Shown here in pieces: positions 1 through 9,394 of a stretch of DNA of 12,468 bases (position 1 is its first letter; every line of letters begins with the position of its first letter). The stretch comes from Octopus sinensis (taxonomy: Eukaryota), in NCBI RefSeq assembly GCF_006345805.1, contig NW_021826592.1:1-12468 (forward strand), given 5' to 3'. The position numbers and the translations under genes were made by a program. The notes under the pieces are model-generated. The model worked only from the letters and a program-made list of their open reading frames with translations, did not search any database and had not been told where the DNA came from.

Positions 1-98
1 ACGGCGTTCACCACCAGGTCGCGATTAAGTGAAGGCCTCTTTGCAAACATATATAAGTTTTCCTAATGGCGTCTCCACTGATGTCGAAAATCGAACAG
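1..98 (-). repeat. Inverted copy of the host repeat unit that spans the uninterrupted (empty) insertion site
   Basis: 12-98 is the near-exact reverse complement of 220-307. The reverse complement of 1-17 (ctggtggtgaacgccgt) continues into the sequence found after the right TSD (ctggtggttaccgcccgt, 5834-5851). Confidence 0.9.
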
Positions 99-307
99 GG
101 CTATAAAGCTACAGTAACACCCCCTCCCCAATGTGGTTAGCCATGATAAGATGGCTTCTATACTTTACATTATCGAGCGATTACTGTTTCAATCTCATTC
201 TGAGATTTAATTATGCTTACTGTTCGTTTTTCGACATCAGTGGCAGACGCCATTAGAAAAACTTATATATGTTTGCAAAGAGCCTTCACTTTCATCGCGA
301 CCTGGTG
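98..307 (+). mobile_element. Left part of a ~356-bp HHR-bearing non-autonomous repeat (PLE pLTR or retrozyme-like), split by the Tx1 insertion
   Basis: 98-166 recurs identically at 5986-6054. Removing the retrotransposon and one TSD joins 98-307 to 5840-5985, giving a 356-bp unit followed by a 69-bp restart. The family assignment is inferred from the HHR and the inverted plus partial-tandem layout. Confidence 0.6.
290..307 (+). repeat. Left target-site duplication (tttcatcgcgacctggtg, 18 bp)
   Basis: An identical 18-mer lies at 5822-5839, directly after aataaagaaaa. Confidence 0.93.
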
Positions 308-559
308 TTTTTTGAATTTTTCCTCGGCGTATACCAATATTTTTCTGTTGCTGCAAATCGTTGTGTGAGTTCGTTTCCGTTTGTCTACTCTGTCGTGTTA
401 CAAGTAATATCATTGTTGAACTGTTTTTGACCCAGTAATTTTCGCCCCTCGGGGTAGAAAATTTCTGTGTGCTGTTTTGTGTGAACTCTTAACCTGTATA
501 GGTTATTTTTGGAAAAAAAAAATTCTCTTGTCATTTGTGACAAGTTTGTGTTGTCTAAT

Positions 560-2072
560 ATGGAATTAGACTTAAGTTCAAAAAAAGACTTTCCCGAGAT
601 GGGAGAAAGTATAACAACTGTTAAACAAAAGGAAACACAGACAAAACCCAGTTTTTCAGACGCCGTAGGTGGCGAAGTCGAAGAAATGGAGGTATCAATG
701 GAAAGATTATTCAAGTTTAGATCGCTGGTGCAAAAAAGTGGCGAAGAAACACGATTGGTACCGCCCCCCGAAACTATACAAGCAATAAAGGAAAAAATGG
801 TCACCTACAGGGTGTACAATATCAAGGAAAAACGAATGACCGACGTGAAAAACGAAATGGTCGAAAAGTGTATGGCTCCAATATGGAGTAAAGTTAGTCA
901 TGTCAACCGAGGTGCAAGAAGCGCTACACAGTGGAGGCGCATTTTGAAACGGCGGAAGTAGCAAGGCAAATTTCGACACAAACGTTGAAAAACGAGAGTA
1001 TAATACTGCTACCCTTATATTTAGGATGCAGAACCGCAAAAGTGACCCTAGAAGATATACCAACGGGCTACGACGTGATGTGGGCGGCAACAGCGGTCAT
1101 TTTTGATGTTGAATCAAAATTGACAATTTTAGTATGAAGAGAAAAATTGCAAAACACTGGAGAGGCCAGCAGCTGGAGATGATAATCCAGGCGGAAAATG
1201 CGACGTTGGAAAGCCTACCAGACAGAGTCTTCGTGGGGGAGGGGCACTCCATACGAGTTTCGGTGGAAGGACGCAGGCCCAGATGTTTTAAGTGCGGGCA
1301 AAAGGGCCACGTTCGCTCCGTTTGCACAAAAAAAAATAATGCGGGCAACGCCCCCCCACAAAACGCTGTGAAGAACGCAGAAAGCAGCAAAGTGGAGAAA
1401 AAAGTAACGGCTGGCGAAAACAAGGAGGAAAAAATAAACAGGTCGAACTCCAAAAAGGAGGAAGACAAGAACGAAATGCAAAATGAGAAAGGAAAGGATG
1501 AGGAAAATAATGCAACAAAAACAAATAAACAAGAAGACATGGAATTTACGAACGTGTCCAACAAAAGGAAAAAATCCATCACCCCTGACTCCCCACCCGT
1601 ATCAAAAAAAAAAACAACGCAGACGAACAAATTAAAATATTCTCCAATCCCACCCCGGCGGTACTACACTTATAGGCCAGCACTTTAACAAACCCCACCC
1701 CCCAACTGTAAAAGGGTTTAAACCCAACGAAAAATTATTGCATACACCACAAAGAACGTGAGAGTAGAAACATGGGTGAAAGCAAGTACGCTGATCAGGT
1801 GCTACAAAGCGACCGAGAAGGAAGCGGAGTGGCGATATGGAAGGGTCGGCGAAGAAGGATGGAAAGACAAAACCTTACAAAGCCACGTAAAAGCCGGCTT
1901 CATTAAGGATGTCACCCAGGAGGTGACAACTGGGAATTACCCGTTAGCCCGCAGCCACACCAACCCAGAGCCCGGTGGCAACGCCGGTGAAACACCCAGC
2001 AGCAACGGCGAGTGGGGGGGAGACAGGCAGAAAGAATCTGTCAGGCTCCCTCTCGCAACCGTGAGTAAATAA
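560..2072 (+). pseudogene. ORF1, gag-like nucleic-acid-binding protein with a CX2CX4HX4C zinc knuckle; frameshifted as given
   Basis: ATG at 560. Consecutive ORF fragments 509-961, 931-1137, 1134-1688 and 1758-2072. CFKCGQKGHVRSVC at 1284-1325 is followed by a K/E/N-rich region. The last stop lies 15 bp before the ORF2 ATG. Continuity across 1688-1758 is uncertain. Confidence 0.8.
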
Positions 2073-2087
2073 TTTTCTTTTTTCTCG

Positions 2088-5000
2088 ATGATTAAGTTAG
2101 GTTGTATAAATGTGCGTGGAATGGGATCGAAATGGAAACAGGCTTGTTTTCGTGACGACCTCATTTCACATAGAATCGAAGTAGCTATTGTTACCGAGTC
2201 CAAGATGAAGGGACCCCAAGCGTTCTCACCACTTCTCAATGGTTACGAGAAATTTATTTCTCCTAGCCGAGGGGGAGGTGCAGGCGTGGCAGTTCTTTTC
2301 AGGAAGAACTTGGACTTACAGGTAAGTACTGTCTTTTTGGACCCAGAAGGTAGGCTGGTTGTCCTAGATGTGACGCACGTGAGTAAGCAGTCCTTCAGGT
2401 TGGTGGCTGTCTACGCTCCTAACGGACGTGGGCAGACCGGTTTTTATCGGGAACTGGAGCACTTTCTAGTGACGTCCAAAACGGTAGTCTTGGTAGGGGA
2501 TTTCAACACCATTCTCGATGCGCGGGTGGATGGTGTAGGCTCGAGCGATAGGAAGGGGAATCCTGGCCTCAAGGCTCTACTAGCGAGCTTTAATCTAGTA
2601 GACCGTTTTCGACTGGATGAGCCGAACGTTCCACAGTGGACGTGGAGTAATAACGACGGCTCACTCAGATCGTACATAGATAGAGTATTTGTTAAGGAAC
2701 GAGATAGGAATAGTGTTAGCTGTCCACAATTCTCTGTTGTGCCTTACACGGATCACAAACTTGTAACGTGTGAGGTACATGTAGATAAATGCCATAGACA
2801 AGGTCCCGGGTACTGGAAGATGAACAAGTCTATTTTGACCTGTGAAGCTTTCCGTACCCGGATTAAGGAATTAGTACAGAGGGCATTATGTGGCACCATC
2901 ATTAATAATAGATGGTGGCTCGCCCTCAAAAGAGCCATCCGTTTGGAGTCCATTAGATTTAGCAAGCAGCTAAGTTTAGATAGGACTAGAATAGAGGGCG
3001 AATTAGTTAAGAACTTAGACGAGGCTATGGAATCTGGCTGTGCATCCGGAGTGTTGGCAGCGAGAGCGGTATTGTACCGTCACCTCAACGCCAAGCACGA
3101 GGGGTGTAGAGTCAGAGCTAAGTTACGTGCAGGAAAACGAGAAGGTATTAACGTTGCCGGATGGGCCCGTCGTGAGGAGAGTCAGAAGGGCAAAAAGTCC
3201 TGTATTATGTCCTTAACTGACGAGCAGGACCGCAAGATCTATGGACAGGAGGAGATGCAGAAGGTCCTTCACCAGCATTTCGCACGGCTGTTTGGGGGCG
3301 GTGGCCCGCTCGAGCGTGGGGAGACCTTAAAGGACTTCCTAGCTGGTGGGCCTCGGCTCTCGGCAGGTGAGGCGGAGTGCTGTGAAGGATCGATCTCTCC
3401 CGCAGAGGTAAGAGGGGTTATGGCCGAGTGCGCCGGGGAAAAGTCACCGGGATTGGATGGTCTACCCTATGAATTTTATTGTTGTATGCCGGACTTGTTC
3501 GGGGACATACTGGCAAGCGTCTATGCAAACTGGCAACAGAATGGGAGGATTCCCAGCTCTGTGAGTCGGGGAGTTGTGACGCTGGTCCAGAAAGACCCGA
3601 GCAAGGGGACAGTATTAGTAATTACAGGCCCATAACTCTACTTAATGTAGAGTTTAAGATTTTGGCCAAGGTGTTAGCAAAAAGGTTGACGGCTGTCGTG
3701 AAGAAACTTGTCGGGAAGGCACAGACATGTGCAATCCCAGGCAGGTCGATCCAGGATAATCTTCACCTTCTCCGCTACACTATAGATAGGGTCGGGAAAT
3801 TAGACGGCAAAGGAGGGGCATTGGTCCATTTAGACCAAAGTAAAGCGTTTGATAGGGTGACCATCGGTACTTGGCGGCGGTTCTCGAAGCGGCTGGGCTG
3901 GGCCCTGGCTTCTGCGGGTGGATCTCAGCTATGTACAGCGGCATCAAGTCCACAGTCCAGATAAACGGTTACCTAACGGAGCCGTTTTCGATCAAGCGTT
4001 CAGTTCGACAAGGGTGCCCCTTGTCCCCGCTCCTGTATGTTTTGGCTCTTGAGCCATTGCTGCGGAAGCTGGAGAAGTTGGGAGGCAACCCTAATGAATC
4101 GATCGATGCGGTAAGTCTGTTTCTGCCTATGCGGATGACGTCACCCTCATCGTGTCCAACGGAACACAGCTACCTCGGGTAGTAGGTGCTCTCCATAGAT
4201 ACGAAGCGGTGGCAGGGGCAAAAGTTAACAGGGACAAGTCCATCGGTTTGCGCCTCGGCACCTGGAGGAACAAGCAGATACCGTCCAGTGTTGTTGGACA
4301 CTGGACGGATGGTCCTGTTAAATTGCTCGGAGTATGGTTTGGTCCAGACTCCCAGACGGAGAAGAATTGGAGCGAGGTAACGAGCAAGGTGGATGCCATA
4401 GTACGGAAGTGGTCCGGAAGGCATCTTTCCTTGAAAGGGAGGGCGGAGGTGGCACAGATGTTTATAGCCTCTGTCGTCACCTACCGCCTGACCGTCGTGC
4501 CTTGCCCCGATTCGTGGTTAAACAAGTTGGAACGACTTCTTTTCCGCTTTTTGTGGAAAGGAGGAAAGCCACTTGTGAGACGCTCCGTGTGTTGCCAGGA
4601 ACCGCTAAAGGGTGGACTGGGGATGCCTTGGCTAATGATGCGCAAGCATGCGTTGAGGCTGAGACACCTCTGGTGTTACCTGGAGGATGATAAGGTGTGG
4701 AGTTCGCTGGCAGAGGAATTCTTCCCGCGACCGGCCTCTATGGAGGGATTTACACCCGGTCTCATTAAAGGACGTAAACTGACTTCATGGCAGAAGGAGT
4801 GCCGACAGGCACTCTGGCTGATCCACAAGATGGGTAAGGCCGGCAGCGGGAATACCACCTCGGTGTTCTATAAAGGGCTGGTAGGAGGAAAAAATGACGA
4901 CGTCCTAGGAAGGGCTCTGGGGTTCGATGAGGATCAACTCTCCAACCTGTTTAAGAAGACTTTCAGGCCGGGGTATTTGGATAATTACCAAAAATCCCTG

Positions 5001-5474
5001 ACCTGGCAGTGCTATAGGAATGCATTACCTGTTCGCGAGAAGTTATCCAGGCACGGAATGTCAGTGCCACCGACGTGTCCAAGATGTGGGTTGGACGATG
5101 AAACCGTTCAACACGCTTTGTACAATGTCGGGAGCTGTCAGGCTTGATAAGTTACGTGGAACACGTGTTGTCGCATCTGGGACGAGTACAGCTGTCGGCT
5201 GGATCTATGATTAAGATGATACCGCCAACTGGACTCTCAAAGGAAGGTAAGGCTTGTTTTTACTGTACGGTGGCAGTATTGAAAGAGTGTGTATGGAGAA
5301 CTAGAGTGGAAGGTCTAGTGAAAGGGTCCTTTATCTCTGGCCCCGGTTTGTTAAAATACTTCGGATATCATCTGAAGAGCAAGATGGGGTTGGAGAAGAG
5401 GAGCCTGCCACAGAAAGTATATGGAACGTTGGAAGGATGTGATGAGAAAGGTGGGTGAGAGTAACCCAGCTTAA
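2088..5474 (+). pseudogene. ORF2 polyprotein: AP-like endonuclease, reverse transcriptase and C-terminal zinc-binding domain; frameshifted as given
   Basis: APE motifs INVRG, VTES, VYAP, GDFN, IDRVF and TDH. RT motifs KSPGLDGLPYEFY, NYRPITLLN, DQSKAFDRV, RQGCPLSP, YADD (4128-4139) and KLLGV. C-terminal CPRC..ETVQH. Frameshifts near 3608, 3858, 4100 and 5120. It ends at 5458, or at 5474 if a further shift restores ...YMERWKDV. Confidence 0.92.
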
Positions 5475-5639
5475 TCATCGAGGAAAGGAATCGGCTGCTG
5501 GGATTTATAGGCTGCCGGGTTCAAAATTGAAACTGGTACCTCCCATTACCTTTCACTGTACATAACTGTTTAAAATAAAGAATTAATAATAAAAAAAAGA
5601 AAAGAAAAGAAAACATACGCACTAAAAGTTCTCGTGATA

Positions 5640-5698
5640 AAGGCAAAAGTAAGCCAAGGTTTCGTTTCAAGGCAAAGTAAGCCAAGTTTTCGTTCAAG
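5640..5698 (+). repeat. Imperfect ~28-bp tandem duplication in the 3' UTR
   Basis: aaggcaaaagtaagccaaggtttcgtttc (5640-5668) is followed by aaggcaaagtaagccaagttttcgttc (5669-5695). Confidence 0.85.
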
Positions 5699-5810
5699 TG
5701 ACATAAAATTTTAATTTTGTAATTTTTTAAATTTCATTCGAACTCGCATAGCATTTTTGTAACTGTTTTGTCCTGTAATGTATCCATTCTATGTTAGATC
5801 TATTGATCAT

Positions 5811-5821
5811 AATAAAGAAAA
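5811..5821 (+). terminator. Polyadenylation signal and short A-tail of the retrotransposon
   Basis: aataaagaaaa lies immediately before the right TSD. Confidence 0.75.
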
Positions 5822-5839
5822 TTTCATCGCGACCTGGTG
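5822..5839 (+). repeat. Right target-site duplication
   Basis: Identical to 290-307. Confidence 0.93.
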
Positions 5840-6054
5840 GTTACCGCCCGTTGACGAGGGACAACAAACCCGAAACTAGTTCGAGCGTATCACTCAGGCT
5901 TGCGAGGAAGGGATGGCCTCCCTTTGCAATTACTCCAAGGACACTGATATTGTGTCTAAAGCCAGCTAGAAACGAAGATCTCTTGGGGCTATAAAGCTAC
6001 AGTAACACCCCCTCCCCAATGTGGTTAGCCATGATAAGATGGCTTCTATACTTT
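5840..6054 (+). mobile_element. Right part of the ~356-bp HHR-bearing repeat plus a 69-bp partial second unit
   Basis: It continues the empty-site sequence seen inverted at 1-17, and 5986-6054 equals 98-166. Confidence 0.6.
5842..5889 (+). ncRNA. Minimal type I hammerhead ribozyme motif (U3 variant, GUU triplet)
   Basis: Stem I cgcccg/cgagcg (one mismatch), core TTGACGA at 5851-5857, stem II ggg-acaacaaa-ccc, GAAAC at 5872-5876, palindromic stem III region aactagtt, predicted cleavage after 5881. Confidence 0.65.
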
Positions 6055-7735
6055 TGAAGACTGAGGGGTTCGAATGTCCTGTCCATGTTTATTGTATCGT
6101 CTTCTATGAGTTATACGTTCTTGCATGTTGTATTTTTCTACATACCTTAACATATATTCAGGCGCCCCGTACCCCCTTTATCATTAATGTGAACACATAT
6201 CTTAATAATTGGTACGACTCTCTGTTGTCTCTCTCTCTTCATTCTACTTTTCTCTTTCATCTTCTCTTGCCTCTGATCTTTGGTCTAGTCTTCCACTACC
6301 CTCCTATTCTTTGTCTCGCTCTGCACTCACAGGTCTCTTTCGACCCCATCCCACTCCTCTCTGTTCCTTTTCTTCTCCTCTGATTCTTCTTTCTCTCTTC
6401 CTCTCTTGTGCGTGTGTCCCTTTTCTCTCTCTCTCTTCCTTGCTTCTCTTTCTTTTCTTTCCCTCTTCTCTGTCACGTGACTGTTGGCCGAAATCTGCCT
6501 TTCAGCTCCTGACCCTCGTCGTGTTGACATCGTTGTTCTTCGTCCGCCGCTATAAAGGCTTTTTCAATGCGCCAGAGAAAAAATTTGTTTGCTTGTTATC
6601 AGTCGTAAGGACTTGTTGTTTTCACCGTTAATGCTTCTGTATTTCTTGTTTCTGTATTCCATTAGTGTTTTTTGTTTTTATATCTGTCCCTTTTGCTGTC
6701 CTGGTGTTCGTATGCATTCGATCCTTCTTCCAGGAAATCTACGCTTCCAGCTTAGTTTTTCTTGGAGGGCTGGCCGTGATCTAGTAATCTCAAGATTAAT
6801 CAGCCGAAATTACTACGATGATCCGGTTCTTGACTGAAGACTGAGGGGTTCGAATGTCCTGTCCATGTTTATTGTATCGTCTTCTATGAGTTATACGTTC
6901 TTGTCCATGTTGTATTTTTCTACATACCTTAACATATATTCCAGGCGCCCCGTACCCCCTTTATCATTAATGTGAACACATATTCTTAATAATTGGTACG
7001 ACTCTCTCTGTTTGTCTCTCTCTCTCTCTCATTTCTACTTTCTCTCTATTCATCTTCTCTTGCCTCTGATCCTTTGTCTAGTCTTCCACTACCCTCCTAT
7101 TTCTTTGTCTCGCTCTGCACTCACAGGTCATTCTTCGACACCCATCCCTTCTCCTCTCTGATTCCTTCTTTCTCTCTCTTCTCTCTCTTTGTTGCGTTTT
7201 GTCCCCCTTTTCTCTCTCTCTCTCTCCTTTTCTCTTGCTTCTTTCTTTTCTTTTTCTTTTCCCTCTTCTCTGTCACGTGACTGTTGCCGAAATCTGCCTT
7301 TCAGCTCCTGACCCTCGTCGTGTTAACATCGTTTTTCTTCGTCCGCCGCTATAAAGGCTTTTTCCAATGCACCAGAAAAAATTTGTTTGCTTGTTATCAG
7401 TCGTAAGACACTTGTTGTTTTCACAATGCGTTAATGCTTCTGTATTTCTTGTTCTGTATTCCATTATTGTTTTTTGTTTTTTTATATCTGTCCCTTTTGC
7501 TGTCCTGGTGTTCGTATGCATTCGATCCTTCTTCCAGGAATCTACGCTTCCAGCTTAGTTTTTCTTGGAGGGCTGGCCGTGATCTAGTAATCTCAAGATT
7601 AATCAGCCGAAATTACTACGATGATCCGGTTCTTGACTGAAGACTGAGGGGTTCGAATGTCCTGTCCATGTTTATTGTATCGTCTTCTATGAGTTATACG
7701 TTCTTGTCCATGTTGTATTTTTCTACATACCTTAA
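6055..7735. repeat. Tandem repeat of ~780-803-bp units (two full copies plus a 98-bp partial copy) with a CT-rich core
   Basis: tgaagactgaggggttcgaatgtcc starts at 6055, 6835 and 7638. The last copy runs into (TA)n at ~7735. Confidence 0.93.
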
Positions 7736-7822
7736 TATATATATATATTAATATATATATATATATATAATATATATATATATAATATATATATATATAC
7801 ATACATTAATAAATACATACAT
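7734..7822. repeat. (TA)n/(TACA)n microsatellite
   Basis: Seen directly in the sequence. Confidence 0.95.
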
Positions 7823-8144: not shown

Positions 8145-8540
8145 TACAGTTAAGTTGAAACATGTGATACGGAGAAGTGCACAATTGACGACAAAGCATT
8201 TGTGGAGTAAATGAAGGGCTATTTCGATTAAGTGACATGTCTTGCGTCTGTTTGGAAGATTCCAGGCCCTAATCTTGTCGTGGAAAAGTGAGTGGAGGAT
8301 ATGTGATTCTTGAACGCACCAAAAAGCTGTCAGTGGATATGATTTCTTTTGCGGTTGTCGTCGCTGCCGCTACAACGCTGAACAATCATGAGACATAGGA
8401 ACTACATCTATGTGACAAATTAAGCCTGAGGGCGCGCTCAACAGTACCACACGAGAGAAATCTACATGAAAGAAATGACGAGGTAAGGCGGGGGATTGAC
8501 AAAGAAGCGCTTGAAAACAACACTGCCATGCGATATTTCG

Positions 8541-8949
8541 GTTGTGAGTACAACTCAGCTCCCAAACGAAAACAATTCTGCATGCAGCATTGGGGTACGC
8601 GAGGTCACACTACGAAAGGATGAAAGTCAAAGTCGACCTCGGCGGAATTTGAACTCAGAACGTAACGGCAGACGAAATACCGTTAGACATTTCGCCCGGC
8701 GTGCTAACGCGTCTGCCAGCTCGCCGCCTTCGATGCCTGGAATATTGAAGTTTCCATTTATCGAGCAACACACAGAGTCTCTAACAAGAGTGGTTGGGTC
8801 ACGTAATGGTGGATTGCTGACGTGGTTGGGGATCAATAATCGTGGCTCAACTGTGCACTCCGCGTAAACTGCGTGCGACCGCTGTGAAGGATACTCAGCT
8901 CCTGAACGAAAACAATTCTGCATGCAGCGACCGGGGGCGCAAGGTCACA
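8541..8949 (+). repeat. Diverged ~69-bp direct repeat pair (8541-8609 and 8881-8949), 340 bp apart
   Basis: Shared actcagctcc..aacgaaaacaattctgcatgcagc...ggtcaca. Confidence 0.85.
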
Positions 8950-9394
8950 TTAAGGACATGGTCTCTAACTAACGTGGTTGGGTCTTAGACACAATAAATT
9001 AGTAGGTTAATGTACATATGATATTTTGTTTTGTAATCAATAGCTGAAGAATATTTGCATGGACTTTGTCTATGCTTAGACGGAAGACTTTGATACTGAA
9101 GCTAAAAGAAAATAGTTGAATAATTGCTCAGGATTTAATATATTTTAGTATATTTTTCATAATAAACAAAGTGCATTCCAAACGGTTTTTATTCCAACAA
9201 ATTTCTGCCTATGGTATTACGGGAACAGGATATTATTGCTACCACTTAGACAAGGCAGTTTGAAGTCTACATCAGTTCATCCATTTAATACAACCTACTT
9301 ATATCATTTCAGTAGCTGCTTTTGCCAGTTTGAACAGAAGCAATGTGTGGAACATGCGGTAGTCGAACGTATCTCAGGAAATAGGGTATTCTGC

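Follow-up and report, generated by a model that had tools for sequence, protein, structure and literature searches.

The window analysed here (12,468 bp) is the entire contig NW_021826592.1 of Octopus sinensis, from a 2.72-Gb genome. It contains a long interspersed nuclear element (LINE) without long terminal repeats (non-LTR), inserted into a short non-coding repeat with a predicted hammerhead ribozyme; this host repeat, which we call Rz-A, has a unit of about 357 bp and resembles the hammerhead retroelements known as retrozymes (Table 1). Part of the repeat, 98-166, recurs at 5986-6054 as a partial tandem. An 18-mer, TTTCATCGCGACCTGGTG, lies at both borders of the LINE (290-307 and 5822-5839), and its GC content of 56% bears out a preliminary description of this DNA in which the target was called GC-balanced. 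Below we describe where this LINE family inserts, and present evidence that its target is probably the start site of a small nuclear RNA (snRNA)-type promoter carried by the repeat, which the LINE would borrow for its own transcription.

Table 1. Features of the LINE insertion and its host repeat (window coordinates).
Position	Strand	Feature	Details
1..98	-	Second, inverted copy of the promoter and start region of the retrozyme	Ended by the contig start; head-to-head, as is typical of the repeat
98..307	+	Hammerhead repeat (~357 bp), upstream part	Retrozyme family Rz-A
232..249	+	Proximal sequence element (PSE)-like snRNA promoter element	Core ATCAGT at 236-241, 58 nt ahead of the predicted +1 (A294)
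290..307	+	5' copy of the target duplication	True extent likely 291-307 (-3..+14); elsewhere often donor-derived
308..5822	+	Non-LTR retrotransposon of the L1 group (probably Tx1), full length	Lacks a poly(A) tail; two open reading frames (ORFs)
560..2064	+	ORF1	CCHC knuckle; ~500 aa in open copies L061 and L079, frameshifted in the window copy
2088..5474	+	ORF2	APE endonuclease, reverse transcriptase (YADD), C-terminal CCHC finger (zf-RVT); frameshifted in the window copy
5811..5816	+	AATAAA	Adjoins the fixed 3' end of the element
5822..5839	+	3' copy of the target duplication	Carries the host allele; retrozyme +1 predicted at 5826
5833..5898	+	Hammerhead fold, type I, whose stem I is extended	U3 in the core (5851-5857); stem III (5875-5880) palindromic; cleavage predicted at GUU, after 5881
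5840..6054	+	Retrozyme monomer, downstream portion	

The LINE has two ORFs, an ORF2 with an N-terminal APE endonuclease, a reverse transcriptase and a C-terminal CCHC finger, and a target duplication of the kind left by target-primed reverse transcription (about 17 bp at most loci), all of which are features of the L1 group. In a phmmer search of solved structures (PDB), ORF2 was nearer to L1 ORF2p (E = 3e-61) than to R2 (E = 1.6e-25), and its closest named relative is from Argonauta hians (65% identity over part of the protein). The element is likely a member of the Tx1 clade, in which sequence-specific insertion into a multicopy target, seen here at 46 of 47 ends, is common though not defining by itself; homologue searches and a cluster look-up yielded no labelled Tx1 reference among their matches. 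The family is very young, with ORF2 open over 1129 aa in the intact copies L063 and L080, and its 5' untranslated region (UTR) measures 250 nt. The window copy differs from L063 by 3 substitutions and 24 indel columns, most of the latter one base long and within homopolymers, and its ORF breaks may therefore be assembly errors. In Octopus vulgaris, 13 recently active L1-Tx1 families have been annotated, and the accessible portion of that report does not mention hammerheads, retrozymes or snRNA (PMC13282606).

Copies of the family were collected with an exact 19-nt pattern of the element 3' end, which gave 48 matches as compared with 2 for a control pattern, and all 48 flanks were inspected. 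One match (L184) was discarded as a chance occurrence of the 19-mer, with no element homology upstream. The 47 true ends represent 43 loci, and the element 5' end is kept in 42 of the 47. At 46 of them the element ends at the same base of the hammerhead repeat: 36 run straight into the repeat, and 10 show the duplicated start motif followed by the 5' end of another LINE copy, of the same or a sister family. The remaining end (L081) continues into the initial nucleotides of a U2 gene. The genome holds 207 exact empty Rz-A sites, which join window 307 directly to 5840, so that about one in ten sites is filled. Thus the flanks recur, as the preliminary description had proposed for a family that targets a hammerhead-bearing repeat, and unrelated flanks, which it named as the refutation, were not what we found; the family almost certainly inserts specifically at one fixed site of this repeat.

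That the insertions are independent follows from their hosts. The majority of copies have their full length and lie within this one kind of repeat, and two pairs (L098/L179, probably one duplicated event, and L035/L036) resemble segmental duplicates, as would be expected had a single nested insertion been amplified as a composite, by the mobiliser of the retrozyme or by segmental duplication. However, among 15 single full-length Rz-A insertions the hosts diverge by 3.6% and the elements by 0.36%, with host divergence the greater in 105/105 pairs, and the outer flanks are unique; insertion therefore occurred independently into pre-existing, already diverged hosts. This tenfold difference largely refutes amplification as a composite, and together with the use of several host types, U2 and tandem arrays makes it hardly credible.

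At one locus outside the pattern census, counted neither way, a 5'-truncated Penelope-like element takes the place of the 3' side, joined on 9 target bases past the LINE end (L221/L090, G000:C9:94408000-94409190). The replacing sequence comprises a Penelope-like reverse transcriptase tail and a GIY-YIG-like end, and a second Penelope-like ORF lies 4 kb further on. Elsewhere, a single retrozyme start is occupied by several copies of different LINE families in head-to-tail order (L082, L093-L097, L177, L182 and L183).

The extent of the duplication differs slightly from the 18 bp ending at 5839 given in the preliminary description. The repeated 18-mer with the LINE between its copies stands, but the true duplication is most likely of 17 bp (291-307 and 5823-5839), T5822 being part of the element end, because copies in CTTC targets still read TTTC at the 3' junction (L089). 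At L089, L092, L096 and L098, target-specific bases appear only from -3/-4 relative to the predicted start of the repeat, so that the duplication spans -3 to +14. The 3' junctions carry no poly(A), and between tandemly arrayed elements only the duplication is found, with no ribozyme.

The 5' copy of the duplication sometimes carries sequence foreign to its host. In the U2 insertion (L081), a 17-nt U2 duplication with one substitution is followed by ATCGCTACCTGGTG, corresponding to retrozyme positions +1 to +14, and then by the element; in L092, an Rz-A'-type 5' copy lies inside an Rz-A'' host, and the bases upstream of it are of the host type. Of 19 single Rz-A insertions that retain both ends, 4 have copies that disagree at +6, a polymorphic position, as against 0/304 comparisons at other positions (p = 8.7e-6, Fisher). 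In these four discordant insertions and in L072, a tandem, the 5' copy does not fit the haplotype of the host sequence upstream, as judged from empty sites, where the combinations are fixed (GGAGC with T in 11/11, GAGGC with G in 6/6). Donor sequence never extends upstream of +1. Since the 5' copy at times does not match the host allele, and in the U2 insertion consists of retrozyme sequence that begins exactly at +1, the element RNA likely starts at a promoter borrowed from the repeat. Heads of this kind might alternatively be added without co-transcription, by a reverse transcriptase jumping onto free retrozyme RNA, in the way that U1/U2 heads are described on SINEU and on some Tx1-Mar elements (PMC4494074); we consider this very unlikely, because the heads are exactly +1 to +14, the part left upstream by a top-strand cut, with no spread of lengths in the junctions seen.

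To characterize the host, loci were recovered with window 167-307 as the query (30 of the 47 listed, from 880 candidates). The loci comprise partial tandems of the 357-bp unit, with variable 5' truncation and two favoured 3' ends (equivalent to window 170-174 and 214-222), and both orientations of the repeat occur in 14/29. Known metazoan non-LTR retrozymes are described as tandem units of 170-400 nt with a type I hammerhead and no coding capacity (PMC7229834) and as likely derived from Penelope elements (bioRxiv 10.64898/2026.07.22.740005). Rz-A, with its short non-coding unit (within 150-450 bp), its 357-bp period and one type I hammerhead per unit, fits a retrozyme of this class, for which self-cleavage and circular RNA are predicted; it differs from those known in having mostly 1-2.5 units and frequent inversions. 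No Penelope-like ORF or protein match that might represent an autonomous partner was present within 1.5 kb in any of the 29 host loci.

Because the U2 insertion pointed to promoters, we examined the region upstream of the insertion site. Among the snRNA genes of this genome the motif ATCAGT occurs at -57 to -61 in 15/15 U1 loci and in 28 of the 29 U2 loci parsed (30 fetched), the sole miss being the inserted gene. The retrozyme carries the same motif at -58 from the A of ATCGC (236 versus 294), and the core is kept at -57 to -61 in five retrozyme types, including Rz-A'' (-58) and Rz-C (-61). A position weight matrix built from 17 distinct U1/U2 instances found its best monomer match at -57 to -59 in 7/8 sites scanned, the miss (L096) being a filled site, and scores equal or better were reached at 71 of 221,790 control positions. 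The insertion site therefore coincides with the predicted +1 of an snRNA-type promoter with a U1/U2-like PSE, at which SNAPc would bind and transcription would start, as the junctions indirectly suggest. An ACAGAT motif downstream of the hammerhead was considered as a 3' box and dropped, as in several retrozyme types these bases are part of a hairpin. Use of an snRNA promoter has been cited for satellite 2 of the newt (PMC2220036).

Sister LINE families use the same kind of site. From 134 reverse transcriptase matches 30 further loci were recovered, and among the 26 whose 3' flanks were inspected, 14 lie at retrozyme starts (8 Rz-B, 2 Rz-C, 2 Rz-A'', 1 Rz-A' and 1 Rz-A), the eight Rz-B insertions with a 17-bp duplication in the same PSE register. 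Two sister elements adjoin snRNA genes: a ~1.55-kb ORF1-only LINE derivative between an intact upstream U2 promoter and the U2 gene (L218, G000:C7:27338800-27340400), and a 5'-truncated LINE whose end meets the initial nucleotides of a U1 gene within a U1 cluster (L223, G000:C15:29050900-29053160). As U2 and U1 genes, which lack a ribozyme, are hit in the same register, the anchor of targeting is probably the snRNA-type promoter or start site and not the ribozyme. Rz-B itself is a second retrozyme, of ~360 bp, with a compensated U3-A8 core and a GUC site, and has a LINE family of its own, which inserts there with the promoter register unchanged (L191-L198, e.g. G000:C1:12348500).

A common sequence does accompany these sites, YTYATCG being shared by all family targets and CC.GTG by most. 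Were the endonuclease simply to read some 17-20 bp of the retrozyme start, with the element using its own promoter, U2 would be an off-target look-alike, in keeping with the single copy in 47 found at an snRNA gene and with the description of Tx1 endonucleases as setting target choice (PMC4494074). The 10-mer common to Rz-A and U2, however, has 17,246 occurrences in the genome, yet the sites used carry the promoter; the 10-mer alone is therefore not the whole targeting signal, which must be completed by RNA pairing, promoter tethering or the reading of a longer sequence. The register is moreover kept at Rz-B, Rz-C and U1 despite their differing sequences, and sequence reading leaves unexplained why retrozyme +1 to +14 was carried into the U2 site exactly from +1, and why 5' copies hold donor alleles. 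We therefore regard recognition by sequence alone as unlikely.

The hammerhead of the window consists of the core TTGACGA (5851-5857), core-proximal stem I (5845-5850/5882-5887), stem II (5858-5861/5868-5871, with a mismatch at A5868, which is T in most copies) and GAA (5872-5874). The Rfam HH9 model matches 5833-5903 with 27.4 bits (E = 5.4e-5), under its gathering score of 52; minimum free energy folding of the region did not recover the fold on its own (z = +0.92), and a two-copy cofold gave nothing informative. The fold is instead backed by covariation: in an alignment of 16 hand-picked hammerheads from five related repeat types, from which the structure itself was drawn, 93% of stem cells are paired and 8/12 pairs show two-sided change (0/500 shuffles). 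The element had been described as lying directly 5' of the ribozyme; the core is indeed at 5851, but the duplicated CCTGGTG forms the distal 5' strand of the extended stem I, and the target site thus overlaps the ribozyme. The same-strand cut foreseen ~60 nt past the element agrees with our prediction, after 5881 and 60 nt past 5821.

The Rz-A core, UUGACGA, departs from the canonical CUGANGA in pairing U3-G8 instead of C3-G8, and its cleavage site is GUU, at which hammerheads cut more slowly. Canonical cores occur in Rz-A', Rz-A'' and Rz-C, the compensated U3-A8 in Rz-B, and GUC sites among the types other than Rz-A. At window 5881, a C, which gives GUC, makes up 16% and 89% of depth in contigs of runs guessed to be RNA and 0.15% in a DNA run; this excess may reflect other subfamilies, another species or preferential expression of active variants. 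Two further motifs were seen near sister LINEs: a minimal Penelope-type hammerhead antisense to the insertion (L207, + 980-1065), and a hammerhead-like motif directly downstream of another (L212).

The preliminary description had placed the ribozyme at the centre of the mechanism, and a version of this would have the hammerhead cleave read-through RNA 60 nt beyond the element end, so that a 3' tail homologous to the target guides priming, while the ribozyme upstream makes the 5' end. A same-strand hammerhead with covarying stems does follow directly after 36/47 ends, one lies just downstream in every sister retrozyme target, and the 3' junctions lack poly(A). Against this stand the 10 tandem junctions and the U2/U1 sites, where the register is the same with no ribozyme adjacent, and the donor 5' sequence, which begins at +1 and not at a cut site ~300 nt upstream. 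Furthermore, an AATAAA precedes the ribozyme, and the Rz-A motif combines U3-G8 and GUU with a stem III that is palindromic and 6 nt long; hammerheads with such a short palindrome in stem III reportedly act as dimers (PMC7229834), and the natural variant described as active is U3-A8 (PMC3088659), not U3-G8. Such a mechanism is thus quite improbable, and the related suggestion that in tandem arrays the ribozyme of the preceding unit cuts upstream fails on the absence of any ribozyme between tandem elements and on the same +1 heads. The ribozyme appears to be mostly a bystander, belonging to the life cycle of the host repeat. A smaller role, in which the host hammerhead would trim the 3' end of read-through RNA at 5881, is doubtful; it is allowed by junctions without poly(A) and by the fact that read-through sequence would be invisible after priming, whereas the weak look of the Rz-A motif and the preceding AATAAA speak against it.

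Together, these data suggest a model, to which we assign a probability of about 0.68, in which a young L1-group, likely Tx1, LINE inserts at the predicted snRNA-type start of a hammerhead repeat and uses that promoter. Independent insertions are fixed at -3 to +14 of the predicted start, with a ~17-bp duplication, in a repeat that has the U1/U2 proximal element at the same distance and where it may act as a promoter. The APE endonuclease would make its nicks at -3 on the bottom strand and at +14 on the top strand, recognizing a YTYATCG-like sequence only in conjunction with such a promoter or with longer flanking sequence. As the junctions suggest, the promoter would stay upstream, and the RNA would start with host +1 to +14 and continue through the element. 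The cDNA of this 14-nt head could then anneal to the new target, which would explain both the donor alleles in the 5' copy and the retention of the 5' end in 42/47 copies. The 3' copy of the duplication would regenerate the site, giving rise to tandem arrays.

Several observations weigh against this model. The PSE call consists of a 6-nt core and its position, and the U2/U1 cases are single events each (one family member and two sister elements); L218 and L223 have no clear duplication, and L223 has no upstream promoter. Among the sister loci, 12/26 have other flanks, several without the ATCAGT core; 10 of these 12 fall in a separate clade with mixed targets (L205 and L188 lie outside it). An element tree meant to trace donors did not resolve donor-recipient pairs. 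None of the sequencing-run records is listed as RNA, and the contigs of runs whose RNA status was guessed cover the repeat and bits of the element but give no information on where transcripts start, end or read through. Transcripts may alternatively come from a promoter inside the 250-nt 5' UTR, and some of the allele discordance could stem from gene conversion.

In an extended and more tentative form of the model, tethering to SNAPc would guide the whole LINE lineage to a fixed distance from any PSE, at U1, U2 and at least five retrozyme types, with the promoter tapped for transcription and the RNA finished by the host hammerhead. Ty3 and the TRE5-A element of Dictyostelium likewise insert at a set position relative to a small-RNA promoter complex, reading Pol III factors (TFIIIB); in the octopus family, such tethering is as yet a hypothesis.

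Beyond the host repeat, the window holds two and a bit tandem copies of a ~800-bp repeat with a TATA-like motif (6055-7740; starts at 6055, 6835 and 7638), which meets the retrozyme at 6054, before the point at which the 3' end of the host usually lies; the sister LINEs L201 and L206 are inserted in similar repeats that also bear a TATA motif. Two imperfect 60-bp repeats, 340 bp apart, lie within an apparent other dispersed repeat (8490-8950), and the remainder is microsatellite (AT, TC, CAC). Rfam miRNA matches in the window were dismissed as simple-repeat artefacts.

Targets described for Tx1 elements include U2 (Keno, before nucleotide 39), microsatellites, and DNA and LTR transposons (PMC4494074, PMC4640811). 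Keno, an APE-type Tx1 element, and Utopia resemble the octopus family in using a fixed site in snRNA-type transcription units, with tandem insertion noted for Utopia, but they insert inside U2, so that the downstream U2 begins at nucleotide 39 (PMC4640811), whereas the octopus family inserts at -3 of the start, in U2 as elsewhere, leaving the coding part of the downstream unit whole, and has a retrozyme as its main target. Other Tx1 elements likewise target mobile repeats, Tx1D in the case of Tx1L from Xenopus and Mariner-N4 in that of the crocodilian Tx1-Mar (PMC4494074); their targets are DNA transposons, while that of the octopus family is a hammerhead retroelement with a predicted promoter and a single-base register common to U1/U2. 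R2 and R1 also rely on the promoter of their target, and co-transcribed target sequence aids their integration (summarized in PMC4494074). R2, however, has its own 5' HDV-like ribozyme and depends on Pol I, whereas in the octopus element the promoter would be of the snRNA-type Pol II class, the 5' end would be the start site, and the ribozyme is host-owned and 3'. Our literature search, which left out Repbase/Dfam, supplements and most subscription papers, uncovered no LINE described as inserting specifically into retrozymes or at snRNA-type start sites, nor any PSE in a mollusc retrozyme.

These results add hammerhead retrozymes to the list of LINE targets and suggest that a single rule, the snRNA-type start site, may lie behind seemingly unrelated targets. 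They provide genomic evidence on the transcription and the full-length 5' junctions of target-specific Tx1-type elements, as well as on the promoter driving animal retrozymes, a PSE, as in newt satellite 2 and now in a mollusc. With nearly all copies full length, the family provides an APE-type site-specific integrase that is tractable, and on which sequence reading could be cleanly told from promoter tethering. Should tethering to SNAPc prove true, this LINE would be a parasite of a parasite, tied to the snRNA transcription machinery.

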